The notes beneath the pieces were generated by a model. The model saw only the letters and a program-made list of their open reading frames with translations. It had not been told where the DNA came from and made no database searches. 64,000 nucleotides of DNA from Syntrophomonadaceae bacterium (GTDB lineage Bacteria > Bacillota > Dethiobacteria > DTU022). A program made the position numbers and the translations under genes. Positions 19,915 to 34,869 of the stretch are shown one piece after another. How positions within the stretch are numbered: the first letter of the stretch is position 1; every line of letters starts with the position of its first letter. The DNA lies in contig PWGX01000017.1 in the NCBI GenBank assembly GCA_003554615.1, positions 7,532 to 71,531 on the forward strand. Reading direction: 5' to 3'.

Positions 19915-21942
19915 ATGATGAAAACAGTAAACTTACAAATTAATAGCAAGAAAGTATTTGCTGAAGAGGGCACGACTATTCTGGAGGCGGCCCGGCAGAA
20001 CGGAATCGACATTCCCACTCTTTGCTACCACCCCCGGTTGGCACCGCTTGGCCATTGCCGTGTCTGTATTGTTGATGTTCAGGGCTTCGACAAGCCGATC
20101 ACATCCTGCGACAATCCGGTTGCCGAGGGAATGGTAGTTGAAACCACAACACCGGAAATCCAGGAAATGCGCGATCAGATCCTGGTCCTTTCTTTAGCGA
20201 CACATCCGTACAAAGACTGCCTGACCTGTGAGCGGACCGGAACCTGTGAACTGCAGGAAAAAGCCTATCAATTTAAAGTTGAACTTCCCGAACAGCTTGA
20301 ACGGGAAGTTCCTGCCGAAAAAGCGGAAGACAATCCGTACATAGTTCGTGATGAGGAAAAATGTATCCTCTGCGGCCGCTGTGTGCGGGTATGCCGGACC
20401 GGCCCCGGGTGCTATGTTTATGAATTAGTTGGCAACGGGGTTAATACCAGGGTGGTGCCCTACAAAGACGGCAAAGAAGTATCCATGGAAGAAGCAGGTT
20501 GTATTTTTTGCGGGCAGTGTGTTGATGTCTGCCCCGTAGCCGCCCTGACCGAAACAGGAAGGGCAGCCGCAGGAAGAGAATGGGAACTGTCCCATATTCC
20601 CGGGGTTTGCGTGGAATGCTCGATTGGATGTTTCCTCGAAAGGCAGGCATCAGGCGACGACCTGATCAAGGTCACCGTTCCTGCCGAGGGGGAAAAAGTG
20701 AGCTGGATCTGCCAGAAAGGCAAGTTTGGCGTCCACAGGCCGGAACCGGATCCCGTGGAAGCACCGCTGCAGCTTGAAGGCAGTGATTACAAAGAAGTTG
20801 CTTACGATGAAGCCGTAAAAGAAACGGCCCGGACCCTCCTTGATATTAAGGAAAAATCAGGACCGGGTGCTGTGGCCGTAATGGCTTCCGGCAAGCAGAG
20901 CAATGAAGAAAGTTACCTGCTGCAAAAACTGGCCCGCTCGGTTTTAGGTACCGCCAATGTTGACCTGGGCGTTGAAAAAGCCTGGGGCCAGGCTTATCAG
21001 GGCCTGTATAAAATTATCGGGCCGGACGTCTGCGGACCTACCCCGGCCACCATGCAGGAGTGCGAAGCGATTATCGTGATCGGGTCGGGGCTGGAAGAAA
21101 GCCACCCGGTAGCCGCTTTTGCCGTCCAGCAGGCCGGACGTTTTGGCGATGCGGTAATAGTGCGCATCAGCGATAAAAAAGAGGAGCTTAAGAGCGCCTT
21201 TAAAGAGATCTGTGTCGAATACAAGCCCGGCTCCGAAACTGCTGTGCTGAAAGGACTCACTGCCGCCATGCGCGGGGATGATCTTTCAGGGCCGGCCAAA
21301 GAGGCGGGCGTTGCGGCCGAAGACTTGCAAAAAGCCGCAGAACAGGTGGCAAAAATGAGAAGCTGCACAGTGGTTGGTTCTTCATTTTTTGAAAACGCCG
21401 ATGATGCAGCTGTAGAAGCTCTGCTGGCCATGGCCAAAGCCGGAGGACAACTTGAATACGGCCGAAGTGACCTTCTGCTTCTGTCCCGGTACAGCAACGC
21501 TGCCGGCACTATCGTCCTGGGTGGATCGCCATCTTTCGGGCCCGGATTTGTGGCTCTTAACGGAGAAGCCGGTTTAAGCCGCGAAGAAGTTGCTTCTGCG
21601 GCTGTAAACGGCAAAGTCAAGGGCGCACTGGTTTTTGGAGACGGGTTCTCCGATTCAAAGCCGGGAGGTTTAGATTTTCTGGCTATTTCATGCATTAACC
21701 GCAGGGAAGTACCGGAGAAAAGCGACCTGGTTTTCCCCGCCCAGCCGCCGGAACGTAAAAATGGGACTTTCACCAATTCATCAGGAGAGATCTGCATCAA
21801 TAAAGCAGCTCTGGAAGGCGGGCCAGAATCGCCGCAGGACTGGAAATTAATCTGTGATCTGGCCGAAGCAATGGGTGAGAAATGGAATTATTCTTCCCTG
21901 GATGATGTCCGGGAGGAAATGCAGGGGTATATTCCCGGCTAA
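19915..21942 (+). CDS. NuoG/FdhA-N-terminal-like Fe-S protein with a degenerate molybdopterin domain (SfrA-like)
   Basis: The product has a 2Fe-2S ferredoxin N-terminus (CYHPRLAPLGHCRVC), two 4Fe-4S motifs (CILCGRCVRVC, CIFCGQCVDVC) and a MopB-type cluster (CVECSIGC...C). The catalytic Cys/Sec-His is missing and there is no C-terminal MGD-binding domain. Confidence 0.75.
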   Translation: MMKTVNLQINSKKVFAEEGTTILEAARQNGIDIPTLCYHPRLAPLGHCRVCIVDVQGFDKPITSCDNPVAEGMVVETTTPEIQEMRDQILVLSLATHPYKDCLTCERTGTCELQEKAYQFKVELPEQLEREVPAEKAEDNPYIVRDEEKCILCGRCVRVCRTGPGCYVYELVGNGVNTRVVPYKDGKEVSMEEAGCIFCGQCVDVCPVAALTETGRAAAGREWELSHIPGVCVECSIGCFLERQASGDDLIKVTVPAEGEKVSWICQKGKFGVHRPEPDPVEAPLQLEGSDYKEVAYDEAVKETARTLLDIKEKSGPGAVAVMASGKQSNEESYLLQKLARSVLGTANVDLGVEKAWGQAYQGLYKIIGPDVCGPTPATMQECEAIIVIGSGLEESHPVAAFAVQQAGRFGDAVIVRISDKKEELKSAFKEICVEYKPGSETAVLKGLTAAMRGDDLSGPAKEAGVAAEDLQKAAEQVAKMRSCTVVGSSFFENADDAAVEALLAMAKAGGQLEYGRSDLLLLSRYSNAAGTIVLGGSPSFGPGFVALNGEAGLSREEVASAAVNGKVKGALVFGDGFSDSKPGGLDFLAISCINRREVPEKSDLVFPAQPPERKNGTFTNSSGEICINKAALEGGPESPQDWKLICDLAEAMGEKWNYSSLDDVREEMQGYIPG

Positions 21943-21962
21943 CCGAACCTAATACCTGCCCG

Positions 21963-21981
21963 GGCTTTTTAATAAAAAGCC
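21963..21981 (+). terminator. AT-rich hairpin after the oxidoreductase pair (weak terminator candidate)
   Basis: GGCTTTTT-AAT-AAAAAGCC forms an 8-bp stem with a 3-nt loop. No separate T tract follows it. Confidence 0.3.
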
Positions 21982-22067
21982 TGAGTATAAACTGTAACCC
22001 GGGAGATTAAACAAAAAACAGTGCCCGGCTGTCGCTGTCTTATACATTAAAAAGATTCGGCGGCCGG

Positions 22068-23315
22068 GTGCTGCCTTTAAATGATATGAACAAACAACTG
22101 CCGCTGTTCACAGTTTCCGAGATAAACCGTTATGTGAAAGGTTTGATTCGAAGCGATCCGCGCCTGCGCGACCTGTGGGTAACCGGTGAAATTTCTAATT
22201 TCAAACATCACCGCTCCGGTCATATGTACTTTACAGTAAAAGACAGTTCATCTGCCCTGCGCTGTGTTTTTTTTCGCCGGGACAACGTGCAATGCATTTT
22301 TCAGCCTACCGACGGTATGGAAGTAATCCTGCACGGCTACCTGTCGGTTTATGAGCCTGGCGGCCAGTACCAGCTGTATGTGCAGGAGATGCAGCCGGCC
22401 GGTATGGGTTCGCTTTATGTCGCCTTTGAGCAGTTGAAACAAAAACTGGAAGCAGAAGGCCTGTTCAAGTCGGAGCACAAAAAAAAGCTGCCGCGGATTC
22501 CCCGGAAAATCGGCCTGGTTACCTCACCCAGCGGTGCAGCCCTGCAGGATATAATTACCACGATTAAGAAACGCTTACCCTATGTCCAGCTACTGGTTGT
22601 TGAAAGCCTGGTTCAGGGGCCCGGAGCGGCAGCCGATCTAATCAGGGCCCTGGATATACTGAACAAAAAAGACGATATTGATCTGATTATTCTGACCCGG
22701 GGCGGAGGTTCACTGGAAGACCTGTGGCCTTTTAACGAAGAAAAGGTAGCCAGGGCCATTTTCAGGTCTTCAAAACCGGTTATATCCGCCGTTGGCCATG
22801 AAACCGACTTTACTATTGCCGATTTTACGGCGGATCTGCGGGCCCATACCCCTACAGAAGCAGCGGCTGCGGCAGTGCCCGTCTATGATGAACTGCTGGC
22901 AGAAAATGATCAACTGCGAAGCCGGGCCGGCCTGGCCCTAAAAAACCGGGTCCTGCAGGAAAAACAGCGGCTGGATCATATTGTAAGCGAACGGTTTTTC
23001 CGGCGCCCGCTGGAAAGGATCAAAACTGCAAAGAACTATTTGGAAGAGACTGAAACCAGGCTGAAACGGGAAATGATCCGTTATCTGCAGTTAAAAGGAA
23101 TCCAGCTGACAGCCCTTGTGGATAAATTGGAAAGCTACAGCCCGCTTAAGGTAATGAATCGCGGCTATACTTTTTGCCGGGATCAGGAAGGAAATATTAT
23201 CCGTTCTGTTAAAGATATACGCATCGGCCAGTTGTTGCAGCTGAGCTTGAAAGATGGCAGGGCGGATTGCCGGGCAGAAAAGGTTGAGGAGGACTGCATC
23301 GTTGACGAAGAATAA
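22068..23315 (+). CDS. xseA: Exodeoxyribonuclease VII large subunit
   Basis: The segments FTVSEINRYVKGLI..L..LWV.GEISNFK.H.SGHMYFT.KD and GRGGGS.EDLW.FN are typical XseA sequence. The start may be the ATG at 22086. Confidence 0.92.
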   Translation: MLPLNDMNKQLPLFTVSEINRYVKGLIRSDPRLRDLWVTGEISNFKHHRSGHMYFTVKDSSSALRCVFFRRDNVQCIFQPTDGMEVILHGYLSVYEPGGQYQLYVQEMQPAGMGSLYVAFEQLKQKLEAEGLFKSEHKKKLPRIPRKIGLVTSPSGAALQDIITTIKKRLPYVQLLVVESLVQGPGAAADLIRALDILNKKDDIDLIILTRGGGSLEDLWPFNEEKVARAIFRSSKPVISAVGHETDFTIADFTADLRAHTPTEAAAAAVPVYDELLAENDQLRSRAGLALKNRVLQEKQRLDHIVSERFFRRPLERIKTAKNYLEETETRLKREMIRYLQLKGIQLTALVDKLESYSPLKVMNRGYTFCRDQEGNIIRSVKDIRIGQLLQLSLKDGRADCRAEKVEEDCIVDEE

Positions 23316-23328
23316 GGATAACCGGAAA

Positions 23329-23583
23329 ATGGAAGAAATGACTTACGAGGAAGCAGTAAAAAAGCTCGAAGAAATCGTCAGCCGCCTGGAGAATGCTGAA
23401 ATACCTCTGGAAGAGTCCCTTTCCTCATTCCAGGAAGGGATTGCCCTTTCCAGGTACTGCCGGGAAAAACTGGCTGAAATAGAATACAAAGTCGAGTATT
23501 TGTTAAAGGAAGAACAACAGCAGTCCCTTGATTCGACAGGCAGCCCGGCGGAAGAAGATGATGATACCGGAGATGAATCATGA
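23329..23583 (+). CDS. xseB: Exodeoxyribonuclease VII small subunit
   Basis: I chose the ATG at 23329. The sequence YEEAVKKLEEIVSRLENAEIPLEESLSSFQEGIALSRYC matches XseB. Confidence 0.9.
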   Translation: MEEMTYEEAVKKLEEIVSRLENAEIPLEESLSSFQEGIALSRYCREKLAEIEYKVEYLLKEEQQQSLDSTGSPAEEDDDTGDES

Positions 23584-24464
23584 TCGAGATTGATCAATAC
23601 CTTGCTCAAAAAAAAGAGATTGTCAACAGGGCTTTAAAAGAATGCCTGCCTGATACCGGGCCAAAGGCGGTCAGGGAGGCGATGAGTTACAGCCTTGAAG
23701 CCGGAGGAAAGCGCCTGCGCCCGATCCTGACTCTGGCCGGTGCCGAAACCCTAAGCTGTGATGATCATGATGTAATCGATGTGGCCTGTGCCCTGGAGCT
23801 GGTCCACACCTATTCCCTGATCCATGATGATCTACCGGCCATGGACGACAGTGATTTGAGGCGGGGAAAGCCAACCTGCCACAAAGTATACGGGGATGCC
23901 GTTGCAGTGCTGGCCGGAGATGCCCTCCTGACCCTTGCTTTTGAGCTGTTATCCCGCTACGGTTTGAAACCCGGACGGGCGGAAAAAGCGGCGCGGATCG
24001 GCTCCGAGCTCGGCAAAGCGGCCGGGGTAACCGGCATGATCGGAGGTCAGGTCCTTGACCTGGAGGCAGAGGGACGTGATTTGACTCTTCTGGAAATTGA
24101 AACATTATCGGCCATGAAAACAGGAGCACTGCTGAAAGCTTCTGTTATTTGCGGGGCTATAGCAGCCGATGCCGGCAGCAAGGAGCTGGAGCTGCTGGAC
24201 CGGTATGCTTCAAAGATTGGGACCGCTTTTCAGATCATTGACGATCTCCTGGATGTGGAAAGCTCAGCCGAAGCGCTGGGCAAACCTACGGGGGCAGACC
24301 AGGACCGCTTTAAGCCTACTTTTCCGGCCGTGCTGGGTCCAGATGAGGCCAGATCCAGGGCAGAAAGCCTTTATAACGAAGCAATTATGGCTTTAACAGA
24401 TTTAAACCGGCCGGTGGAGCTTTTAACCGGACTGGCAAAAAAAATGGTCTTCAGAAGTAAATAA
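23580..24464 (+). CDS. ispA: (2E,6E)-farnesyl/geranylgeranyl diphosphate synthase
   Basis: The FARM motif LIHDDLPAMDDSDLRRGK and the SARM motif FQIIDDLLD are both present. The ATG overlaps the xseB stop. Confidence 0.92.
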   Translation: MIEIDQYLAQKKEIVNRALKECLPDTGPKAVREAMSYSLEAGGKRLRPILTLAGAETLSCDDHDVIDVACALELVHTYSLIHDDLPAMDDSDLRRGKPTCHKVYGDAVAVLAGDALLTLAFELLSRYGLKPGRAEKAARIGSELGKAAGVTGMIGGQVLDLEAEGRDLTLLEIETLSAMKTGALLKASVICGAIAADAGSKELELLDRYASKIGTAFQIIDDLLDVESSAEALGKPTGADQDRFKPTFPAVLGPDEARSRAESLYNEAIMALTDLNRPVELLTGLAKKMVFRSK

Positions 24465-24553
24465 CTCCAGGGGCTATAAAATAACGGCAACCGTGCTGGG
24501 GGAGAAGACCGTTATAGTCTGCAAGATGTAGAAAAAACTATAAAGCTGACCCG

Positions 24554-24582
24554 TTGTCTGCATACGGAGGTTGTGCTATGAT
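24554..24582 (+). promoter_or_regulatory. Candidate promoter immediately upstream of the structured RNA (TTGTCT-17 nt-TGcTATGAT)
   Basis: TTGTCT lies at 24554-24559 and the extended -10 TGcTATGAT at 24574-24582. The predicted TSS is near 24590, a few nt before the terminal helix. Confidence 0.45.
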
Positions 24583-24589
24583 ATAGTCC

Positions 24590-25155
24590 TGAAGCATGCA
24601 TAAGTGGTGCAGTATTCTAGTTGGCGCCCCTTCCCGAAAACGGGCCTAAAAATCCGTTAAGGGCACATCGATGAAGTTCCTGGTGGCGGCTGCCGAAGCC
24701 CAGTTGGGAGCTGCTGCTGGGAGTTAAGAAGGACGGGGCGATCTACAAAGGCATGTAGGCGTTGACCCTGCCTTCGTGGAGACCCAATGTTCGTGGCGGA
24801 TTGTTGAGAAACAAAAGGCTACGGCTTGGGAAGAACCTGTATGCGGTAAGAAGCTGTGTACAGTGTAGCCTGCCTTGAGTGGAAAGGGTAGAGGAGTAAA
24901 ACTCTGAAACCCTTTCTGCAAAAGAGGCTAGGGGAGATCAGGCGCCAGAGTGGAAATCTCCTAGACTGCTCTCGTAAGAGAAGTAAGCCAGGGATTAAAG
25001 TGTGAGCTAAGTGGTAATCCAGCTCCGTTTGTGGCGACACGATGGGGATAGTCTTAAAAGGGAACTGCCTGACAGGCGACTGCAGGTGACTATCCGGGAA
25101 AACCTGCTGGACCTAAGCCGCAAAGTTTACCTGGCTTGCTACCACTTATGCTTCT
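24590..25155 (+). ncRNA. ole: OLE (ornate, large, extremophilic) RNA; boundaries approximate
   Basis: The 711-bp gap between ispA and the oapA-like gene has no + strand ORF of 60 aa or more. An 11-bp terminal helix (24598-24608 pairing with 25141-25151) encloses about 554 nt with many internal helices, including a GNRA-capped hairpin. The gene order xseA-xseB-ispA-[RNA]-TM protein-dxs-tlyA-nadK-recN is the published OLE context. Confidence 0.85.
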
Positions 25156-25175
25156 TTGTACAAAGGTGATGGCTA

Positions 25176-25757
25176 TTGTCCAACAGTAAAAACCGAAGCA
25201 GAATCCGCTGGATCATTGTCATTTCTTTGTGGACATTTTTCCTGGCTGTGGCCCTCAGCTTTGTATCACATTATTTTTTGAACGAACTGCAGTCGATCGC
25301 GTTGTCTTTTGTGATCCTGCTGCTGGTAGTCATGCTGGGCATCGTTTTTGACCTGATCGGTACCGCGGCAGCCGCGGCTGACATAGCGCCGCTTAACGCC
25401 AAGGCGGCCCGAAGAGTTGCAGGCGCCAAATGCGGTGTCAACCTGGTTAAGAACGCCGAACGGGTAGCGACATTCTGCAACGACGTGGGCGGAGATATCA
25501 GTGGTATAATCAGCGGGACCCTGGTGACAGTAATCGTAATCAAGCTGGTGGTTACATTCTCACATCAGCAAGCTGAATTTTACCTGGGAATTTTGCTGGC
25601 CGCTTTTGTTGCAGCCCTTACAGTAGGCGGTAAAGCCTGGGGTAAAGTAATTGCCATTAATTATTCAACTGAAGTGATTTTACTGGTTGGATTGATGATT
25701 ACCAAATTGCAAAGGCCATTAAGCTGGTTCAGTAAGGGTGAGATAAACCAGAGGTGA
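25176..25757 (+). CDS. oapA: OLE-associated protein A (small polytopic membrane protein)
   Basis: The gene has a TTG start after the SD AAAGGTGA. The 193-aa product has 4-5 predicted TM helices. It lies directly 3' of the structured RNA with no recognisable terminator between them, and its stop overlaps the dxs start (GTGA). Confidence 0.8.
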   Translation: MSNSKNRSRIRWIIVISLWTFFLAVALSFVSHYFLNELQSIALSFVILLLVVMLGIVFDLIGTAAAAADIAPLNAKAARRVAGAKCGVNLVKNAERVATFCNDVGGDISGIISGTLVTVIVIKLVVTFSHQQAEFYLGILLAAFVAALTVGGKAWGKVIAINYSTEVILLVGLMITKLQRPLSWFSKGEINQR

Positions 25758-27652
25758 TTGTAATGGATGGTGTGCTTGGCAGTATGAACCTGCCTGATGA
25801 TCTGAAGAATATGACCGGGGAACAGCTTGAAAAAGCCGCTTCTGAAATACGCGAATACATGATCAGGACGGTGGCCGATAACGGTGGCCACCTGGCGGCA
25901 AGCCTGGGGGTGGTTGAACTGACCCTGGCCTTGCACAGCACCTTCAACAGCCCCACCGACCGCATTATTTGGGATGTCGGCCATCAGAGTTATCCCCACA
26001 AGTTGCTTACAGGCAGATGGGAAGAGTTTGCCACCCTGCGCCAGCTTGATGGTTTGTGCGGTTTTCCAAAGCCTTCTGAGAGCGAACACGATCCTTTTCT
26101 GACCGGGCACAGCAGTACTTCAATTTCGGCGGCCCTGGGCCTGGCTCAGGCCAGGGATTACAATGGTGAAGATTACAAGATTATTGCTGTAATCGGCGAC
26201 GGCGCCCTGACCGGGGGAATGTCTTTTGAAGCCCTTAACCACGCCGGCCATATCAAGGCCAATATAACGGTTATTCTAAACGACAATAAGATGTCGATCA
26301 GCTCAAACGTCGGCAGTATGTCTGCTTACCTGGCCCGGATCCGCTCTGATCCAAAATATTCTAGACTAAAGGACGATTTCGAAAGCTTTGTAGGCCGGAT
26401 CCCTGTGGTAGGAAAGAAAGCTCTTAATTATGCCGACAGGGTCAAGGGCGGGCTTAAATACCTGGTTGTGCCGGGCATGATCTTCGAAGAGCTCGGCTTT
26501 ACTTATTTTGGCCCCATTGACGGTCATAATATAGCTGCAATTAAAAATACCCTCCGGCAGGCCAATCAGATGAAAGGGCCGGTCATGATCCACGTGGTGA
26601 CAGAAAAAGGGAAAGGGTACCACTACGCAGAAAAATCACCGGAAGTTTTCCACGGAATCGGTCCTTTTGATTTAAACAACGGCTTGCTCAAGAAAAAGAA
26701 AAGCGCTTCGTACACAGAAATTTTTGGCCGGACCCTGATCAAGCTCAGCCGTGAGAACCCGAAAATTGCGGCCATTACGGCGGCCATGACCTCGGGTACC
26801 GGCCTGAGAAATTTTGCCCGGGAATTTCCGGAACGGTTTTATGATGTAGGGATTGCCGAACAGCATGCGGTAACTATGTCCGGGGCTTTGGCTGCCGGCG
26901 GAATGCAGCCGGTTGTAGCCATTTACAGCACCTTCCTGCAAAGAGCCTATGACCAAATTTTACATGATGTCTGCATGCAAAACCTGCCCGTTGTATTTGC
27001 CGTTGATCGCGCCGGTATAACCGGCGAAGACGGAGAAACTCACCAGGGTTTATTTGATCTCAGTTTTCTGCGCAGCATCCCCAAAATGTCCATAATGGCG
27101 CCTTCCAATGAAAACGAACTCCAGCACATGCTGTTTACGGCATTAAACTATTCCGACGGTCCTGTGGCCCTGCGCTACCCGCGCGATAAAGTGGAAGGAG
27201 TAGACCTTGAAGAGCCGCATATTTTACCCTGGGGCAGGGGCGAGTTGCTTCGGGAAGGCCGGGATCTGCTGATCGTTGCCGCCGGAACGGTCGTCAAGCA
27301 GGCCGTAGAGGCTGCCGAAAAACTGACCCGGCAGGGTATTGATGCAGCGGTGATCAATGCCCGTTTTGTGAAACCTTTGGACAAAGAGCTGATTGCTCTA
27401 TGGGCCCGCAGGTGCGGGCGGGTTTTGACCGTAGAAGAAAATGTCCTGGCCGGCGGTTTTGGAAGCGGCGTTCTCGAACTGCTTGCCGGTGAAAGTTTGT
27501 CGGTGCCGGTAATAAGGCTCGGCATAGGCGATCAATTTGTCGAGCACGGTTCCCGGGCTAAATTACTTTCTCATTTCAAACTTGATGCCGGGGGAATTTT
27601 TAATGAAGCCCTTGCCTTTGTCGGTACCGGGGCTGTGAAGGGTCAGAGTTGA
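25754..27652 (+). CDS. dxs: 1-deoxy-D-xylulose-5-phosphate synthase
   Basis: The motifs GGHLAASLGVVELTLALH, WDVGHQSYPHK, the TPP-binding GDGALTGGM and IAEQHAV are all present. Confidence 0.95.
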   Translation: MIVMDGVLGSMNLPDDLKNMTGEQLEKAASEIREYMIRTVADNGGHLAASLGVVELTLALHSTFNSPTDRIIWDVGHQSYPHKLLTGRWEEFATLRQLDGLCGFPKPSESEHDPFLTGHSSTSISAALGLAQARDYNGEDYKIIAVIGDGALTGGMSFEALNHAGHIKANITVILNDNKMSISSNVGSMSAYLARIRSDPKYSRLKDDFESFVGRIPVVGKKALNYADRVKGGLKYLVVPGMIFEELGFTYFGPIDGHNIAAIKNTLRQANQMKGPVMIHVVTEKGKGYHYAEKSPEVFHGIGPFDLNNGLLKKKKSASYTEIFGRTLIKLSRENPKIAAITAAMTSGTGLRNFAREFPERFYDVGIAEQHAVTMSGALAAGGMQPVVAIYSTFLQRAYDQILHDVCMQNLPVVFAVDRAGITGEDGETHQGLFDLSFLRSIPKMSIMAPSNENELQHMLFTALNYSDGPVALRYPRDKVEGVDLEEPHILPWGRGELLREGRDLLIVAAGTVVKQAVEAAEKLTRQGIDAAVINARFVKPLDKELIALWARRCGRVLTVEENVLAGGFGSGVLELLAGESLSVPVIRLGIGDQFVEHGSRAKLLSHFKLDAGGIFNEALAFVGTGAVKGQS

Positions 27653-28485
27653 AAAGCAGCCGTCAAAAAAAACGCCTCGATCTTCTCCTGCACAGGCTGA
27701 AGCCGGAACTGAGCCGGAGCCGAATCCAGTCGGAAATAATGGCCGGAAAAGTCCTGGTTAACGGATCTGTATGTGATAAACCCGGGACCCTGGTGGAAGA
27801 AAGTGCAGAAATAAAACTCCTTGAACCGGACAACCCTTACGTGAGCCGGGGCGGGCTGAAGCTGGAAAAAGCCCTGGAAGATCTGGCCATGACCGTCGGG
27901 GGCCTGGTCGTCCTTGATGTCGGCGCTTCAACCGGGGGATTTACCGATTGTTTGCTGCAGAACGGCGCCCGCCGGATTTATGCTCTTGATGTTGGATACG
28001 GCCAGCTGGATTACAGCCTCCGCCGCAATCCGGCAGTAGTGGTTATGGAGCGTTTCAATGCCCGCTTCCTGAAACCTGAAGATATACCGGAAGTTCCTGA
28101 TTTGGCCGTAATTGATGTTTCGTTCATTTCACTGTTAAAAGTTTTGCCCGTCCTCTGCCGCCTTGAGATACCGCATGTCCTGGCCCTGGTTAAACCACAA
28201 TTTGAAGCGGGGAAAGCAGATGCCGAAAGGGGTAGGGGCGTAATCCGGGACCCTGACTTACACTGCCGGGTTTTAACGGATATCATCGAAGATGCCTGCA
28301 AAACGGGGTACTGCTGCCGGGATATAACTTTTTCCAAATACCCGGGGCCCAAGGGGAACATTGAATATTTTGGATACTTTTCAAGAGAAAAAGCTGGGGT
28401 ATGCAAGTGCCGGGAAGATTATAAAGAAAAAACAGCAAAGACTGTAGAAGAAGCCCATCTATTGCTGCTGAAAGAGAAGAAATAA
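27649..28485 (+). CDS. tlyA: TlyA family rRNA (cytidine-2'-O)-methyltransferase
   Basis: The product has an S4-like N-terminus (RLDLLL..RSRIQSEIMAGKVLVNG) and an FtsJ-type SAM-binding motif (LDVGASTGGFTDCLL). Confidence 0.88.
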   Translation: MKSSRQKKRLDLLLHRLKPELSRSRIQSEIMAGKVLVNGSVCDKPGTLVEESAEIKLLEPDNPYVSRGGLKLEKALEDLAMTVGGLVVLDVGASTGGFTDCLLQNGARRIYALDVGYGQLDYSLRRNPAVVVMERFNARFLKPEDIPEVPDLAVIDVSFISLLKVLPVLCRLEIPHVLALVKPQFEAGKADAERGRGVIRDPDLHCRVLTDIIEDACKTGYCCRDITFSKYPGPKGNIEYFGYFSREKAGVCKCREDYKEKTAKTVEEAHLLLLKEKK

Positions 28486-28571
28486 CGAGCCTGGGAGGAT
28501 ATCGAAGCCGGCGCGAAGAAACTTATTCCAGTCCGGGTTGGTTTTAGCTAAAGGAGGATCCAGGAAGCCAT

Positions 28572-29423
28572 ATGAAAGAAATAGGTGTTATCCCCAACTG
28601 GCATAAAAGCAATACTACCCTGGTTGTAGATAAGATAAAAAAATTTTTTAGCCAGCGCCGGATACCTCTTCATGTTGTTGACAGCGATCAGGCTGATTTC
28701 TACAGCAGCGTGTCCCTTGCCGAACAACTTTCCGAACTTCATAACAGGCTGGAAATGATCATAGTGGTCGGCGGAGACGGCACTATTCTCAGGGTGGCCA
28801 GGGATTTGGCCGGCTGGGATGTGCCGGTTTTGGGCATAAACCTGGGGCACAAGGGTTTTCTGGCTGAAATAGAAGTCGAACAGATGGAGCGGTTCCTGCA
28901 ATATATTGCCACCAGGCAGTACGATTACCAGGATCGGATGATGCTTGAAGCAAAACTTTACCGCAGGGATGAAGAACTGGGTTGTTACCTGGCCCTCAAT
29001 GATATTGTTGTGGCCCGCGGCCCTTTTTCCCGCAACATAAAAGTGGATTCATTTATCAACAACGACTTCATGGAAAGCTATTTTGGAGACGGCATAATCA
29101 TTTCTACTCCCACCGGTTCAACCGCTTACTCTTTATCGGCGGGCGGGCCCATAATCAACCCGGTCATGGAGCTTTTTGTAATTACACCAATCTGCCCGCA
29201 CAGCCTCTACAACCGCTCGGTTATAGTTGACGGCTCGGACACGATCAGTTTAAAAGTCGACTCCCGCCAGGTCCAGGTAGTTTTAACGGTTGATGGTCAG
29301 GTCCGCTTTGCCCTCGAGGACGACGACCGTATCCTGATCTGCCGGGCCAAACAAAAAGTTAAACTGGTTTGTTTCCATGAAAACTCCTTTTACAGGTTAC
29401 TGCATCAAAAGTTAAAGGCATAA
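28572..29423 (+). CDS. nadK: NAD kinase
   Basis: The motifs GGDGTILR, NLGHKGFL and STPTGSTAYSLSAGGPI are present. Confidence 0.92.
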   Translation: MKEIGVIPNWHKSNTTLVVDKIKKFFSQRRIPLHVVDSDQADFYSSVSLAEQLSELHNRLEMIIVVGGDGTILRVARDLAGWDVPVLGINLGHKGFLAEIEVEQMERFLQYIATRQYDYQDRMMLEAKLYRRDEELGCYLALNDIVVARGPFSRNIKVDSFINNDFMESYFGDGIIISTPTGSTAYSLSAGGPIINPVMELFVITPICPHSLYNRSVIVDGSDTISLKVDSRQVQVVLTVDGQVRFALEDDDRILICRAKQKVKLVCFHENSFYRLLHQKLKA

Positions 29424-29443
29424 ATTTAAGGAGGAGCAACTAA

Positions 29444-31156
29444 ATGCTTGTGGAGCTGCGGGTTTCTAATTTTGCATTAATCGAAGATCTCAGCTTTACC
29501 TTTAGTTCCGGCTTAAATGTATTAAGCGGCGAAACCGGGGCCGGCAAGTCTGTGGTGATAGGAGCGATCGGCCTGCTGCTTGGTGAAAGGGCTACCGTGG
29601 AACAAATCCGCCAGGGCAAAGACAATGCCTATGTGGAAGGGGCTGTCTACCATGAACAGGCCGGCCAGAATCAAATAGATGGCCTTTTGGAGAAGGCCGG
29701 AATCGAGAAATCAGATGAACTGATCATTGCCCGCGAAGTTTACAGCAACGGTCGCAGCGTGGCCCGGGTGAACGGCAGGGCTGTTCCGGTTTCGTTTTTA
29801 AAAGAAATGGGCCGGTACCTGGTTGATCTGCACGGCCAACATCAGCATCAATCCCTGCTGCGTCCCGAAGAACACCTGGAGCTGCTTGATTCATTCGGAG
29901 GCGAAAAGATCAGGACATTAAGAAACGCACTTGAAGAAATGTCCCGCAAAAGGCAGGACTTGCAGAAAGAGCTGTCCTCCCTGGGCAGCAGCAGCTCCGA
30001 ACGTGAAAGGCGCCTTGATGTATACGAATTTCAAATCAATGAAATTAAAAATGCAGGTCTGCGGCAGGGTGAGGATGAAGAACTGGCTGCACGGGAAAAA
30101 GTCCTTGCCAATGCTGAAAAATTGTGGAACCTCACCGCCGATGCTTATGCCGATCTGTATGCCGGAAGTGATGATGGTATGACCGAAGCGGTAATCGACC
30201 GGTTCAACAGGGCCAAACGCTTCCTGGATGAAGCGGCCGGGATCGATCAGAACCTGGTTCCCATGCTTGATCTTCTGGAGAGTGCTGCGGCCCAGCTGGA
30301 GGAAACATCGCATGAACTTCGCGATTACCAGTCCAGGCTTGAATTTGATCCGGCCGAGTTGAATATGATCCAGGAACGCCAAAACCTGATCGGTGATTTG
30401 AAACGGAAATATGGTTCCTCAATTGAAGAAGTTCTTGAATTTGCCGCCCGGGCGGAAGAAGAAATGGATCGACTCAGAAACAGTGAGGAAACGGCCGCAC
30501 GCCTGGAACAGGAAATTGGCGATCTGGAAAACCGGATGATGGAACAAAGCCTGCAGCTGCGCAAGCTGCGCCGGGACACGGCCGAAAATATTGAGGCTTT
30601 ACTTGAAGAATGCCTGCAGGAGCTGGCCCTTCCCAACGCCCGCTTTGAAGTCAAGTTTACTGAAAAAAAGGAGCTGACTTCAAAAGGGTTGGACCAGGTT
30701 GAATTTATGTTCAGCGCCAACCGCGGCGAAGATGTTAAACCTTTGACCAAGATTATCTCAGGCGGCGAGGTTTCCAGGGTGATGCTGGCCCTTAAAACGA
30801 TCCTGGCCAGGCAGGATATGGTGCCGACCCTGATATTTGACGAAGTCGATGCCGGGATCGGGGGAGCGACGGTACAGGCGGTAGCTGAAAAGCTGGCTCA
30901 CCTCTCTATGCACCATCAGGTCTTGTGCGTTACACACAGCCCCCAGATCGCCGCCATGGCCGATTCTCATTACAGTCTGTACAAGGAAACCGTTGATGAA
31001 AGAACCTTGACCAGGGCGGCCCTGCTCGACTCATGGCAGAGGCGGGAAGAACTGGCTCGTATGCTGGACGGGGCCGGAATCGACCAGGTCAGCCTGCAAC
31101 ATGTCGACAGCGTCCTGGAAAGGGCTCGCCGTTTTAAAGAACAGTTTGCGGGTTGA
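29444..31156 (+). CDS. recN: DNA repair protein RecN
   Basis: The N-terminus LVELRVSNFALIEDL..F..GLNVLSGETGAGKS is typical of RecN. A long coiled coil follows, then the C-terminal SGGE.SR..LA and FDEVDAGIGG motifs. Confidence 0.95.
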   Translation: MLVELRVSNFALIEDLSFTFSSGLNVLSGETGAGKSVVIGAIGLLLGERATVEQIRQGKDNAYVEGAVYHEQAGQNQIDGLLEKAGIEKSDELIIAREVYSNGRSVARVNGRAVPVSFLKEMGRYLVDLHGQHQHQSLLRPEEHLELLDSFGGEKIRTLRNALEEMSRKRQDLQKELSSLGSSSSERERRLDVYEFQINEIKNAGLRQGEDEELAAREKVLANAEKLWNLTADAYADLYAGSDDGMTEAVIDRFNRAKRFLDEAAGIDQNLVPMLDLLESAAAQLEETSHELRDYQSRLEFDPAELNMIQERQNLIGDLKRKYGSSIEEVLEFAARAEEEMDRLRNSEETAARLEQEIGDLENRMMEQSLQLRKLRRDTAENIEALLEECLQELALPNARFEVKFTEKKELTSKGLDQVEFMFSANRGEDVKPLTKIISGGEVSRVMLALKTILARQDMVPTLIFDEVDAGIGGATVQAVAEKLAHLSMHHQVLCVTHSPQIAAMADSHYSLYKETVDERTLTRAALLDSWQRREELARMLDGAGIDQVSLQHVDSVLERARRFKEQFAG

Positions 31157-31178
31157 TCCGCTTCCGGGAGGGGAAATA

Positions 31179-33293
31179 ATGCTTCTTGAGAATATGATGA
31201 CCAGCAATTATGCCACGCTTCGGCCCGGTGACAAGCTGGAAACGGCCGTTCAGCGCCTTAGAAACAGCCGGCGTGACGGCCTGCCCGTCTTACACGAAGA
31301 CGGTTCGCTTGCCGGCATTTTTACCAAGACCAACCTTTATGATGCCCTTCTAAAAGGATGCAACCTTGATCAGGCGGTCGATCCCTATTACAACCGCAAC
31401 GTAGTAAAAATAAGCAAAGACCTGACCTATGATCAGGTCATAGATACCGTGCACCGCATCCCGGTCGGAACCGGGGTTGTCATTGACAGTTCAGGTTCTG
31501 TGGTAGGCCTGTTCACCAAGGTAGAGCTCATAACCTCACTTTTTAAAGAAGAGAGGATGCTTAACACCAGGTTGACAGCAATGTACCAGGCCATGCACAA
31601 TGCCCTGGTATCTGTTAACGATAACGGGCGGATCAATTTTGCCAACCGTTCAGCCGAGCAGCTTTTTGGTATCAAAAACAGCGCTGTAAAAAACAAGCTC
31701 CTGGAGGAAGTTCTGCCCGGGTTTGATATGAGCCCGGTCCTTGAAAAAGGGATGGTGGAAATCGGGGCCAACTATGCCACTTCCAAATTTACTACCGTAG
31801 TTAACAAAACTCCTCTAATTGATAACGGCCGGGTAGTTGGGGCGCTGGCTATTTTTCAGGATATAACCGACCTGGAATCGATTGCCGAAGAAATGGAAAC
31901 TGTTAAAAGGCTGAACCAGACCCTGAGGGCGGTCCTCGATATTGGCTACGATGCCCTGGTGGTTGTTGATGAAGAAGGGCTGATCGTTTTGGTTAACCGG
32001 GTATTTTTAGACTTTGTCCGTCAAAAAGAAGAAGCAGTTATATCAAAACCGGTTCACGAGATTCTTGAAAACAGCCGCCTCCAGGTGACAGCAAAAACGG
32101 GCGTACCCGAGTTGAACGATATCCAGTTTATTGAAGGAAAGCCCTATGTCGTATCCAATCTTCCCATTACCAGGGATGGAAAAGTAATGGGGGCTGTTGG
32201 GAAAATTAGCTTCAGGCGGGTTGACGAACTACGCGATCTGGCCGAAAGGCTGGAAGCGATGGACAGCCGGCTGGCCCATTTCCAGGAAGAGTTAAAGAAA
32301 GCGCGGTTCAGTGAACGGCCGTACCAGTTTGAAGATATCGTTACCATTAACCCCGGGATGCAGGCAGTGATCCGGGAAGCGCGGCAGGCTGCCCAGGGCC
32401 ACTCCACGGTGCTAATCAGCGGCGAGAGCGGAGTGGGCAAGGAACTGATGGCCCAGGCTATTTACCAGGCTGGTCCGCGCTGTAATGGGCCTTTTGTCAA
32501 AGTAAACTGTGCCGCCATTCCTGAAAACCTTCTTGAGTCGGAGTTTTTTGGATACGTCCAGGGTGCTTTTACCGGGGCCCAGCCCGGGGGAAAGCGGGGC
32601 CGACTGGATATGGCTGACGGCGGGACCCTGTTTCTCGATGAAATAGGGGATATGCCCCTGACCATGCAGGGCAAGCTGCTGCGGATTTTGCAGGATCAGA
32701 CTTTCGAGCGAATCGGGGGGACTTCGACCATTAAAGTTGATACCCGGTTTATTGCCGTTACCAACCAGGATCTGGAACAAAAAGTGAGGGAAGGCAAGTT
32801 TCGCGAAGACCTGTATTACCGGCTTAATGTCATACCGGTCCATATCCCGCCTTTACGGGAACGGCCGGAGGATATTTTGCCCCTGGTTAACGCATTTCTA
32901 CGCAAATATAACGATATTTTCGGAATGCAGGTCAGCGATATCTCACCGGAAGCTTTGGCTGCTTTGCGGTTTTATAACTGGCCGGGCAATATCCGGGAAC
33001 TGGAAAATGTTGTGGAACGGGCCATGAACTTTACTGATGAAGATGTGATTAGAATTGATCACCTGCCGCCCCACCTGCGCAAAGCAGGTTCCAATTTTTG
33101 GCAAGATGAGAATGCCGGGCCTTCCGGTGAGCAGGTTGTTCCCGCTTACCGCTGGAAAAGAGAAGAATCTGAACGGGATGCTATCATCGGGGCTCTGCGG
33201 GATGCCGGGGGCAACAAGAGCAGGGCAGCCCGGTACCTGGGGATCAGCCGCTCCTGGCTTTATGAAAAGATAAACCGTTATAATATCAAGTAA
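31179..33293 (+). CDS. Sigma-54-dependent transcriptional activator with N-terminal CBS pair and PAS domains
   Basis: I chose the ATG at 31179, which follows GGGAGGGG. The product has a CBS pair and PAS-like regions. The AAA+ core carries GESGVGKE and the sigma-54 contact loop GAFTGA, and a Fis-type HTH (NKSRAARYLGISRSWLYEKI) closes the protein. Confidence 0.88.
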   Translation: MLLENMMTSNYATLRPGDKLETAVQRLRNSRRDGLPVLHEDGSLAGIFTKTNLYDALLKGCNLDQAVDPYYNRNVVKISKDLTYDQVIDTVHRIPVGTGVVIDSSGSVVGLFTKVELITSLFKEERMLNTRLTAMYQAMHNALVSVNDNGRINFANRSAEQLFGIKNSAVKNKLLEEVLPGFDMSPVLEKGMVEIGANYATSKFTTVVNKTPLIDNGRVVGALAIFQDITDLESIAEEMETVKRLNQTLRAVLDIGYDALVVVDEEGLIVLVNRVFLDFVRQKEEAVISKPVHEILENSRLQVTAKTGVPELNDIQFIEGKPYVVSNLPITRDGKVMGAVGKISFRRVDELRDLAERLEAMDSRLAHFQEELKKARFSERPYQFEDIVTINPGMQAVIREARQAAQGHSTVLISGESGVGKELMAQAIYQAGPRCNGPFVKVNCAAIPENLLESEFFGYVQGAFTGAQPGGKRGRLDMADGGTLFLDEIGDMPLTMQGKLLRILQDQTFERIGGTSTIKVDTRFIAVTNQDLEQKVREGKFREDLYYRLNVIPVHIPPLRERPEDILPLVNAFLRKYNDIFGMQVSDISPEALAALRFYNWPGNIRELENVVERAMNFTDEDVIRIDHLPPHLRKAGSNFWQDENAGPSGEQVVPAYRWKREESERDAIIGALRDAGGNKSRAARYLGISRSWLYEKINRYNIK

Positions 33294-33296
33294 AAG

Positions 33297-33887
33297 TTGG
33301 GACAAACCGGAAAACAAAGCGAGGTGTTAACCATTTACGAGGACCTGAAAGAAAAAACAGTATCCACCAGTTACCTTTACCGCGGGAAAATTGTGAACGT
33401 CCGCCAGGACAGGGTGAAGGATGGCCGGGGGAAAGAAGCCTTCCGGGAAGTGGTCGAACATCCCGGTGCAGTGGCTATCCTGGCTGTAAATGAAAATGAC
33501 GAAGCAATGCTGGTCAGGCAGCACCGGCAGCCCGCCGGAGAAGTTATGCTGGAAATACCGGCCGGCAAACTGGAACCGAATGAAGAACCGCTTGAATGTG
33601 CCCGTCGTGAGCTGATGGAAGAAACTGGCTTAAACGCCGGCAGATGGCAGGAATTAACCTGCTTTTACACCTCGCCGGGTTTTTGTAACGAAATGATTTA
33701 CCTGTTTCTGGCTGAAGATCTAAGCCAGGGTGATCCGGCAACTTCCGATCCGGAAGAAAATATCAAAAAGGAAGTTATATCACTGCCCCGGGCCGGGGAA
33801 ATGATTGCAGACGGCCGGATTAAAGACGGTAAAACTATAATTGCGCTCCAGTACGCCATGCTTCAAAAAAAATATACTTACGAATAA
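33297..33887 (+). CDS. NUDIX hydrolase (ADP-ribose pyrophosphatase type)
   Basis: The NUDIX box is readable as GKLEPNEEPLECARRELMEETG. The gene has a TTG start. Confidence 0.85.
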   Translation: MGQTGKQSEVLTIYEDLKEKTVSTSYLYRGKIVNVRQDRVKDGRGKEAFREVVEHPGAVAILAVNENDEAMLVRQHRQPAGEVMLEIPAGKLEPNEEPLECARRELMEETGLNAGRWQELTCFYTSPGFCNEMIYLFLAEDLSQGDPATSDPEENIKKEVISLPRAGEMIADGRIKDGKTIIALQYAMLQKKYTYE

Positions 33888-33981
33888 ATGATAATATTTA
33901 TACATATTATTTTTATTGGGCAGGTATTTTGATTTTCTCGTTGAAGATAAATACATATTTTGTTGCGAGGGTAATATAGGA

Positions 33982-34869
33982 ATGCAAAAACAACTACAGG
34001 AATACACTAATTATTTAGCCGTTGAAAAAGGTCTCTCAAAGAATACCCTGGAATCATACCGCCGAGATCTAAATAAATTTATTGCTTTTCTGAATAAGCG
34101 GGAGGTAGTAAACCCCGAAAAAGTTGATCGTGAAGACATCAACTTCTTTTTAGCGGAACTGAAAGCAAATAAAAGCGCCACCTCTACCATTTCGCGGACC
34201 ATAGCCTCGATCAGGTCCTTTTTTAATTTTTTGATGGAAGAAGGGTTTATCGAAAGCAATCCCGCCCTCAACCTTGAATCACCAAAAATTGAAAAGAAAC
34301 TACCCCGGGTTTTAACCACCTCGGAAATTGATCGCCTTCTTGGACAACCCAGGCCTGGTGACCATAAGGGACTGCGGGATAAAGCGATGCTCGAACTGCT
34401 TTATGCTTCGGGAATCAGGGTTTCCGAACTGATCGACCTTAATTTAAGCGATTTTGATCCACGGGTCGGCTACCTGCGCTGCCGGGGCAAGGGCCAGAAA
34501 GAAAGAATAGTGCCTATCGGTTCGGTAGCAATCAACTCTGTCAATGAATATATGAGCAAAGCCAGGTCCAGGTTATGTAAAAATAACGGAGAAACCGCTC
34601 TATTTGTGAACCAACACGGAAATCGCATGACCAGGCAGGGTTTTTGGAAAATCCTGAAAAAGTATGCCTTTAAATCTAACATTGACGGAGAAATAACTCC
34701 CCACACTATTCGCCATTCTTTTGCCACTCATCTGCTTGAAAACGGTGCGGATCTGCGTTCTGTCCAGGAAATGCTCGGGCATTCCGATATTGCGACTACC
34801 CAGGTCTATACCCAGATAACCAGGAAAAAAATCCGGGAAGTATACGACAAGACCCACCCCCGGGCTTGA
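33982..34869 (+). CDS. xerD: Site-specific tyrosine recombinase XerD
   Basis: I chose the ATG at 33982. The N-terminus YLAVEKGLSKNTLESYRRDL and the catalytic residues in ASGIRVSELI, HTIRHSFATHLLENGADLRSVQEMLGH and TTQVYT match XerD. Confidence 0.88.
   Translation: MQKQLQEYTNYLAVEKGLSKNTLESYRRDLNKFIAFLNKREVVNPEKVDREDINFFLAELKANKSATSTISRTIASIRSFFNFLMEEGFIESNPALNLESPKIEKKLPRVLTTSEIDRLLGQPRPGDHKGLRDKAMLELLYASGIRVSELIDLNLSDFDPRVGYLRCRGKGQKERIVPIGSVAINSVNEYMSKARSRLCKNNGETALFVNQHGNRMTRQGFWKILKKYAFKSNIDGEITPHTIRHSFATHLLENGADLRSVQEMLGHSDIATTQVYTQITRKKIREVYDKTHPRA

Follow-up and report, generated by a model that had tools for sequence, protein, structure and literature searches.

A probable oapA gene directly behind OLE RNA in an uncultured soda-lake lineage of Bacillota

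In Halalkalibacterium halodurans (H. halodurans, formerly Bacillus or B. halodurans) the OLE RNA and its protein partners form a ribonucleoprotein (RNP) that helps the cell to withstand alcohol, cold, an excess of Mg2+ and poor carbon sources. [quoted passage not shown] OLE has itself been proposed to be a membrane-spanning RNA, and an ion-transport activity has been proposed within the OLE RNP. Two further protein partners are known: OapB (YbzG), a small KOW/SBB protein, is encoded between map and infA, and OapC (YbxF), an L7Ae-family k-turn binder with a conserved glycine in its GTKQT motif, is encoded between rpoC and rpsL.

Published OapA proteins have four transmembrane helices behind an N-terminal signal-like segment (PMC12265935, PMC11332333). 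Fernando and Breaker described a DxxxD motif as the distinctive feature of OapA, missing from CNNM domains (PMC11332333), and the two strictly conserved aspartates of OapA are the residues altered in the dominant-negative PM1 mutant (PMC7936274). When proteins are scored with the CNNM model PF01595, the cluster of OapA proteins ranks directly behind MpfA, and the structure that best matches the predicted H. halodurans OapA is CorB, 7M1U (PMC11332333). It has been suggested that OLE RNA may stand in for the cytoplasmic domains that OapA lacks (PMC11332333, PMC12265935). In B. halodurans a proximal ole promoter is active, and some co-transcription of ole with its neighbours takes place (PMC3413148).

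Here we describe a gene of an uncultured lineage that shares many features with H. halodurans OapA (BH2780) and its Bacillota orthologues: a same-strand position right behind ole, the ispA-ole-oapA-dxs neighbourhood, a length of about 190-210 aa, an N-terminal helix with four transmembrane helices, the DxxxD motif and the basic loop, a weak CNNM likeness with CorB as the top structure, a proximal ole promoter, and OapB and OapC encoded elsewhere. It differs from the known cases in its source, a soda-lake sediment lineage, and in its sequence, which shares about 40-46% identity with the recovered Bacillaceae orthologues; its clade is further set apart by a conserved TTG start and a nearly invariant linker of 24-26 nt. 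The Haemophilus opacity-associated protein A (OapA, PF04225) has the name alone in common with these proteins and belongs to an unrelated family; a Pfam search found no PF04225 match in the protein described here.

The ole-oapA locus and its neighbourhood

The stretch of DNA analysed (the window, 64,000 nt, in whose numbering positions are given below) lies on contig C6 of a 0.98-Mb genome of 56 contigs and 71% completeness, the closest public relatives of which are metagenome-assembled genomes (MAGs) from soda-lake sediment labelled Syntrophomonadaceae. We conclude, with a probability of roughly 0.93, that positions 25176-25757 encode OapA, the integral-membrane partner of OLE RNA, and that the gene is expressed in one transcription unit with OLE. 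The features of the locus are collected in Table 1. The order xseA-xseB-ispA-ole-oapA-dxs-tlyA-nadK-recN, all on one strand, is the classical, published neighbourhood of ole. The ole-oapA pair is thus a textbook, already known system found in an uncultured lineage, and the locus is an ordinary one.

Table 1. Features of the ole-oapA locus, in window coordinates
Feature	Position	Strand	Description
xseA	22068-23315	+	Pfam Exonuclease VII large subunit
xseB	~23338-23583	+	Pfam Exonuclease VII small subunit
ispA	23580-24464	+	Pfam Polyprenyl synthetase
ole promoter-like site	24554..24582	+	-35 TTGTCT, 17-nt spacer, TG-extended -10 TATGAT
ole	24588..25161	+	RF01071 by cmscan; P1 24598-24608/25141-25151
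P1-oapA linker	25152..25175	+	24 nt: U-rich tail (TTCTTTGTAC), SD AAAGGTGAT (25162-25170), 5-nt spacer
12-nt perfect palindrome CTTTGTACAAAG	25154..25165	.	U-rich OLE tail followed directly by the A-rich start of the SD
oapA	25176..25757	+	193 aa, TTG start, TGA stop; DxxxD D103/D107, TVGGKAxGK 149-157, basic loop 68-100
oapA/dxs junction	25750..25765	+	dxs SD AGAGGTGA 25750-25757 spans oapA TGA 25755-25757; likely start ATG 25763
dxs	to 27652	+	Pfam DXP synthase
tlyA-like	27649-28485	+	Pfam S4 plus FtsJ
nadK	28572-29423	+	Pfam NAD kinase
recN	29444-31156	+	Pfam RecF/RecN/SMC

The RNA ahead of the gene was identified by cmscan against Rfam 15 as a full-length OLE RNA of 574 nt (478 bits against a gathering score of 50, E 3.7e-137), the match covering positions 1-616 of the 616 positions of the model. 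Its closing helix P1, read from the sequence, pairs GCATAAGTGGT with ACCACTTATGC; it is A/U-rich, comprises 11 bp and closes a 530-nt domain. Genome searches placed ole in a single copy, and oapA is likewise single-copy. Among related genomes, six (G019, G052, G053, G058, G063 and G064) gave OLE matches that are split or partial, often at contig ends (such matches cover model positions 278-595 alone in one case, and 54-277 together with 286-435 in another). In these genomes the assembly may be broken within the OLE gene, or the matches may represent the truncated OLE variants of the literature.

A consensus scan of the plus strand between 24300 and 26000 returned one promoter-like site only, located just upstream of P1, from which the transcript is predicted to start about 7-9 nt ahead of P1. 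In 17 related loci the pattern TTGnnn-17-TGnTATAAT stands at a constant distance from CATAAGTGGTGCAG and P1, and the DNA further upstream is unconserved and could not be aligned among relatives. We read this pattern as a conserved putative promoter just upstream of OLE.

The preliminary description of this DNA had the stop codon of oapA overlapping the start codon of dxs. The letters GTGA are indeed present, with GTG 25754 overlapping the stop codon, and the two genes are tightly packed, but the start and stop codons themselves probably do not overlap. In the 22 junctions that we compared, close relatives with a clear start have the Dxs N-terminus at an ATG or GTG 5-9 nt past the oapA stop; the conserved N-terminus MDGVLG..LNLPDDLK aligns from ATG 25763, which sits 5 nt after the Shine-Dalgarno sequence (SD) of dxs. 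Judged by the N-termini of relatives and by SD spacing, GTG 25754 is the less likely start, and the overlap is probably an artefact of listing open reading frames from the first possible start codon. oapA and dxs are nevertheless tightly coupled genes.

The junction between ole and oapA

The oapA start codon lies 24 nt past the terminal helix P1, which ends at 25151; the gap of 25 nt given earlier was off by one base. This linker belongs to a strongly conserved junction: in 23 loci of the window's clade the arrangement CCACTTATGyTTyTTTGTACAAAGGTGATG-N4-5-TTG is nearly invariant, and so is the length of the ole-oapA linker, at 24-26 nt. Folding of the linker together with the start of the gene gave nothing beyond shuffled sequence (-8.9 kcal/mol, z +0.52). 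Since an in-frame TGA (25167-25169) lies inside the SD of oapA, and since the N-terminal residues K5, R11 and W12 are kept in at least 90% of homologues, TTG 25176 is the sole usable start of the gene. By the start assignments made here, 39 loci divide into 20 with TTG, 6 with GTG and 13 with ATG; in the window's clade the TTG is invariant, behind the strong AAAGGTGAT SD. A weak start codon behind a strong SD suggests selection for a low output of OapA.

No terminator consisting of a hairpin and a T-run was found on the plus strand between 24300 and 26000 by a consensus scan, which sees short hairpins only and does not reach long-range structures such as P1 with its U-rich tail. This agrees with the preliminary description, where no hairpin-plus-T-tract had been seen between the RNA and the gene. 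When the scan was widened to 21900-34000, terminator-like matches came up at chance level (15 against 16.2 expected). Across 39 loci the gap between P1 and the oapA start has a median of 29 nt, and 36 of them are without a canonical terminator between ole and oapA. Judged from these sequences, the absence of a terminator is the norm of the family and no peculiarity of the window. Because oapA has no promoter-like site of its own and only 24 nt of room in front of it, the gene would be transcribed through ole; from the layout alone we infer that the two are co-transcribed.

Spacers of other kinds occur among the relatives. The 3 loci of the 39 with a terminator (L052, L058 and L070, of Tissierellaceae or Sporosalibacterium type) carry between ole and oapA a hairpin of the form GCTGATAGC-loop-GCTATCAGC followed by TTTTT (L052:3390-3455, L058:3386-3455, L070:3393-3494), conserved across three distant lineages. 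Two further loci have OLE-oapA spacers of about 250-260 nt instead of about 25 nt (L022:3244-3494, L023:3252-3494). These long spacers fold strongly (MFE about -79 kcal/mol) and align poorly with each other; a search against Rfam at a permissive threshold gave no match other than OLE.

The alternative to co-transcription that survives best is that the transcripts of ole and oapA are for the most part uncoupled. P1, with its 11 bp, and the U-rich tail GCUUCUUUGUAC would then terminate transcription weakly, in a non-canonical way, or would form a 3' end at which the RNA is processed and stabilised. Free OLE RNA would make up the bulk of the transcripts, and oapA mRNA, by read-through or survival, a minority of them. 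The Rfam OLE consensus itself includes, behind ACCAC, a U-rich 3' tail, and a T-rich tail follows OLE in most of the 39 loci. The three loci with a true hairpin-plus-T-run inserted between the genes indicate that attenuated read-through is tolerated. In B. halodurans, moreover, OLE shows one band on Northern blots, has a very high stability and greatly exceeds oap mRNA in amount (PMC3413148). Ethanol raised OLE RNA about 7-fold in that organism and oap mRNA modestly (PMC3413148), and therefore some uncoupling, through processing, differential stability or partial termination, occurs in at least one species. However, the P1 helix of the window is A/U-rich and closes a whole 530-nt domain, and as such is no hairpin; the U-run after it is interrupted, and the SD follows directly behind. 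The short gaps and the general lack of canonical terminators in the family speak against this alternative as well, and some read-through is obligatory, there being no separate promoter-like site for oapA. We thus hold a largely uncoupled ole and oapA to be possible but rather unlikely as a description of the locus. As a determinant of the ratio of RNA to protein, processing, stability or partial termination at P1 and the U-rich tail is a live rival, because oap mRNA of B. halodurans rises much less than OLE. Co-transcription of the pair is the reading that we prefer.

The linker also holds the 12-nt palindrome noted in the preliminary description, which is present where it was reported, over the SD of oapA, but to which we attach no significance. 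That it serves as an operator for a dimeric DNA-binding protein, or as an RNA hairpin masking the SD, might be argued from its perfect symmetry, its overlap with the SD and its core TGTACAAAGG, which is kept in most of the 23 clade loci, but both roles are highly improbable and were rejected on frequency (17 perfect 12-nt palindromes in the window against 15.6 expected), on fold energy (a 4-nt loop closed by no more than 4 A/U-rich pairs, in a linker that folds no better than its shuffles) and on missing covariation (11 of the 23 relatives alter one half, at C1, T2, T3 or G5 on the left or at A9/C8, e.g. TTTCTACAAAG, CTCTGTACAAAG, TATTGTACAAAG and GTACTAAGG, with no compensating change). The left half is the U-rich OLE tail, which falls within the Rfam model (positions ~606-616) and is found family-wide, and the right half is the start of the SD; these two explain the conservation that is seen, and we read the palindrome as the probable by-product of two adjacent conserved elements. 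OapA-binding palindromes were reportedly mapped in OLE by Block et al. in 2011.

Identity of the protein and its partners

In a large protein database the protein has 540 homologues, none of them informatively named: most are unnamed, and a few are labelled 'hypothetical', 'Mg2+/Co2+ transporter CorB' or 'CBS domain containing-hemolysin-like protein'. We collected relatives by an alignment scan of one genome per prokaryote species, in which 80 loci were listed of 573 relatives, and ran Rfam on the 39 of these 80 that have an adequate upstream flank (protein identity 39-94%). In every one of the 39 loci a full-length OLE (419-537 bits) lies directly upstream on the same strand. Their cultured hosts include Aeribacillus composti, Salimicrobium halophilum, Scopulibacillus daqui, Sporosalibacterium faouarense and several Bacillus species. 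The H. halodurans locus is not among the 80, and homology to the OapA family is established through other Bacillaceae loci rather than through BH2780 itself. Co-occurrence was examined in 81 genomes sampled from the class to which the window belongs: OLE was found in 71 and the protein in 77, and all 71 OLE-positive genomes have the protein. Six genomes have the protein without an OLE match, and in three of these the gene is within about 350 nt of a contig end. The protein thus takes the same-strand position right after ole, is homologous to the proteins found in that position elsewhere and co-occurs with OLE, as is characteristic of OapA.

Some of the loci carry unexpected labels. Six (L015, L022, L023, L034, L043 and L049) are typical Bacillota OLE-oapA contigs filed as Ilumatobacteraceae, Limnocylindrales, Desulfovibrio or Desulfovibrionaceae MAGs, and are probably mis-binned or mislabelled. 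Another (L079) is filed as Bacillus subtilis; the B. subtilis reference genome gave no OLE match in a control search.

The predicted membrane topology is that of OapA. A Kyte-Doolittle scan over 19 residues gave hydrophobic segments at about 9-34, 33-71, 104-130, 132-155 and 157-176, and the AlphaFold2 model, built with a 37-sequence alignment (mean pLDDT 85, pTM 0.74), is all-helical, with helices at 3-37, 41-67, 70-78, 84-92, 94-127, 131-162 and 164-186. Both agree with the 4-5 hydrophobic helices ascribed to the 193-aa protein in the preliminary description, and together they predict an N-terminal helix and four transmembrane helices.

The motifs of the family are present as well. D103 and D107 of the sequence FCNDVGGD (FCNDVxGD in the family) are invariant in 37/37 aligned sequences and form the DxxxD of the protein, D103-V-G-G-D107. 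Further residues invariant in the 37 sequences are F58-D59, G62, P72, T149-V-G-G-K153 and K157; the motifs FD..G.A and TVGGK are invariant as well. The loop at 68-100 has 6 K/R against 2 D/E, a positive-charge cluster like that of published OapA; in the 31 closer homologues its residues N74, K76, A77, G83 and A84 are invariant, and R79 is at least 90% conserved.

The likeness to CNNM proteins is as weak as expected for OapA. Pfam gave a sub-threshold PF01595 match of 21.1 bits against a cut-off of 28.4, and weak PF01595 matches were found in 17 of 37 family members. A Foldseek search with the model returned as its six best PDB matches CorB/CorC CNNM membrane domains throughout (7m1t, 7m1u, 7cfg and 7cff), with a probability of about 1.0 and a TM-score of about 0.5 over about 150 residues; all other matches had a probability of 0.13 or less. 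A weak CNNM match joined to CorB as the top structure is the combination seen in OapA. No NCBIfam model matched the 193-aa protein, and PDB searches by sequence and by profile, started from the protein and from the homologue alignment, gave no matches even at E = 10, so that the CNNM link is visible through the sub-threshold Pfam match and the fold alone. When the OapA alignment was compared by hhalign with the genome's own CNNM protein, no meaningful alignment resulted (probability 0.5%).

The sub-threshold Pfam match, the CorB/CorC structures and the CorB- or hemolysin-like labels of some database entries could also be taken to mean that the protein is a truncated CNNM/MpfA-type divalent-cation transporter, which lies beside OLE by chance and works independently of the RNA. 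Its predicted membrane fold is indeed similar to that of MpfA, CorB and CorC (CNNM, DUF21), among them Methanoculleus thermophilus CorB (7M1T/7M1U) and Thermus parvatiensis CorC (7CFG). In contrast to these, however, the protein stays below the Pfam cut-off, has no CBS pair and no CorC_HlyC domain, stops at residue 193 and bears one additional helix at its N-terminus, and it carries the DxxxD that is missing from CNNM domains (PMC11332333). Chance placement is incompatible with OLE adjacency in all loci examined and with co-occurrence in 71/71 genomes, and the genome encodes a separate, true CNNM protein. An RNA-independent transporter is accordingly a very unlikely identity, and we retain OapA. 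The protein may have an ion-transport activity within the OLE RNP.

The true CNNM protein is the only one of the genome (G000:C3:3384-4424; L003:1480-2520) and has 346 aa and a PF01595 score of 128.6 bits. Its C-terminal ~180 residues match neither CBS nor CorC_HlyC in Pfam, which sets the protein apart from typical MpfA/CorB. Species that bear OLE usually have at most one MpfA-type paralogue, with which the single CNNM protein found here agrees.

Together, the position behind ole, the upstream OLE in 39/39 loci, the DxxxD, the helices, the basic loop and the CNNM/CorB likeness uphold the proposal of the preliminary description that the protein is OapA in an OLE-associated arrangement; homology to the OapA family, on which that proposal depended, is evident in homologues that stand behind OLE in all 39 loci examined. 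The same description had found neither OapB nor OapC recognisable in the window and had pointed to the rest of the genome as the place to look for them. Candidates for both were found there, on another contig (C11), in the ribosomal-protein region. The OapB candidate (L002 1722-2012, minus strand, 96 aa) is single-copy, and its gene is flanked by map and infA; of the PDB entries it matches 7k9b, 'OLE-associated protein B', best (E 2.7e-7, residues 7-83), with eL14 next. The OapC candidate (L001 1483-1764, minus strand, 93 aa), an L7Ae-family protein encoded between rpoC and rpsL, matches PF01248 with 52.8 bits and has the sequence VVGTKQT, in which the glycine of GTKQT is kept; its best PDB match is B. 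subtilis YbxF (3v7e), with E 3.4e-14 against 0.0064 for YlxQ. At the level of sequence the two candidates have the features of OapB (YbzG) and OapC (YbxF), respectively.

Proposed assembly and meaning of the locus

In the model that we favour, transcription would start at the conserved strong promoter a few bases ahead of P1, would run through the 574-nt OLE, where no canonical terminator stands in its way, and would cross the unstructured, U-rich linker of 24 nt to reach oapA and, very probably, dxs, tlyA, nadK and recN beyond it. OapA would be translated from a strong SD but a weak TTG, giving little protein per transcript; this low translation is a deduction from the start codon. The protein would enter the membrane as a CNNM-like helical bundle with the OapA-specific DxxxD, would dimerise and bind OLE RNA, and would anchor the RNA at or in the membrane, and the YbzG-like OapB and the YbxF-like OapC, encoded in the ribosomal-protein region of the other contig, would complete the RNP. 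RNA binding, membrane anchoring and a role in stress are carried over here by analogy with H. halodurans and may be expected of this OapA.

The strictness with which ole and oapA are fused might have a further purpose, namely assembly in cis. The ribosome that translates OapA would carry its own OLE to the membrane by co-translational insertion, in the manner of 'transertion'; the RNA would be delivered to the nascent OapA dimer and would later be released by processing. The idea is prompted by the median gap of 29 nt, the lack of a terminator in 36 of 39 loci, the near-invariant 24-nt linker, the strong SD and the conserved weak TTG, and we put it forward as a speculation that is probably wrong. 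If it were true, a membrane-spanning OLE would have a built-in delivery route.

What is new here is comparative detail alone, namely the short invariant linker, the conserved TTG and the rarity of ole-oapA terminators (3/39). These bear on the ratio of RNA to protein in the RNP and leave the understanding of the system unchanged. For the organism, the candidates on the second contig bring together a complete OLE RNP set, OLE, OapA, OapB and OapC, in an uncultured soda-lake lineage of Bacillota. For the family, a gene listed in public databases as 'hypothetical protein' or 'CorB-like' can now be annotated as oapA.
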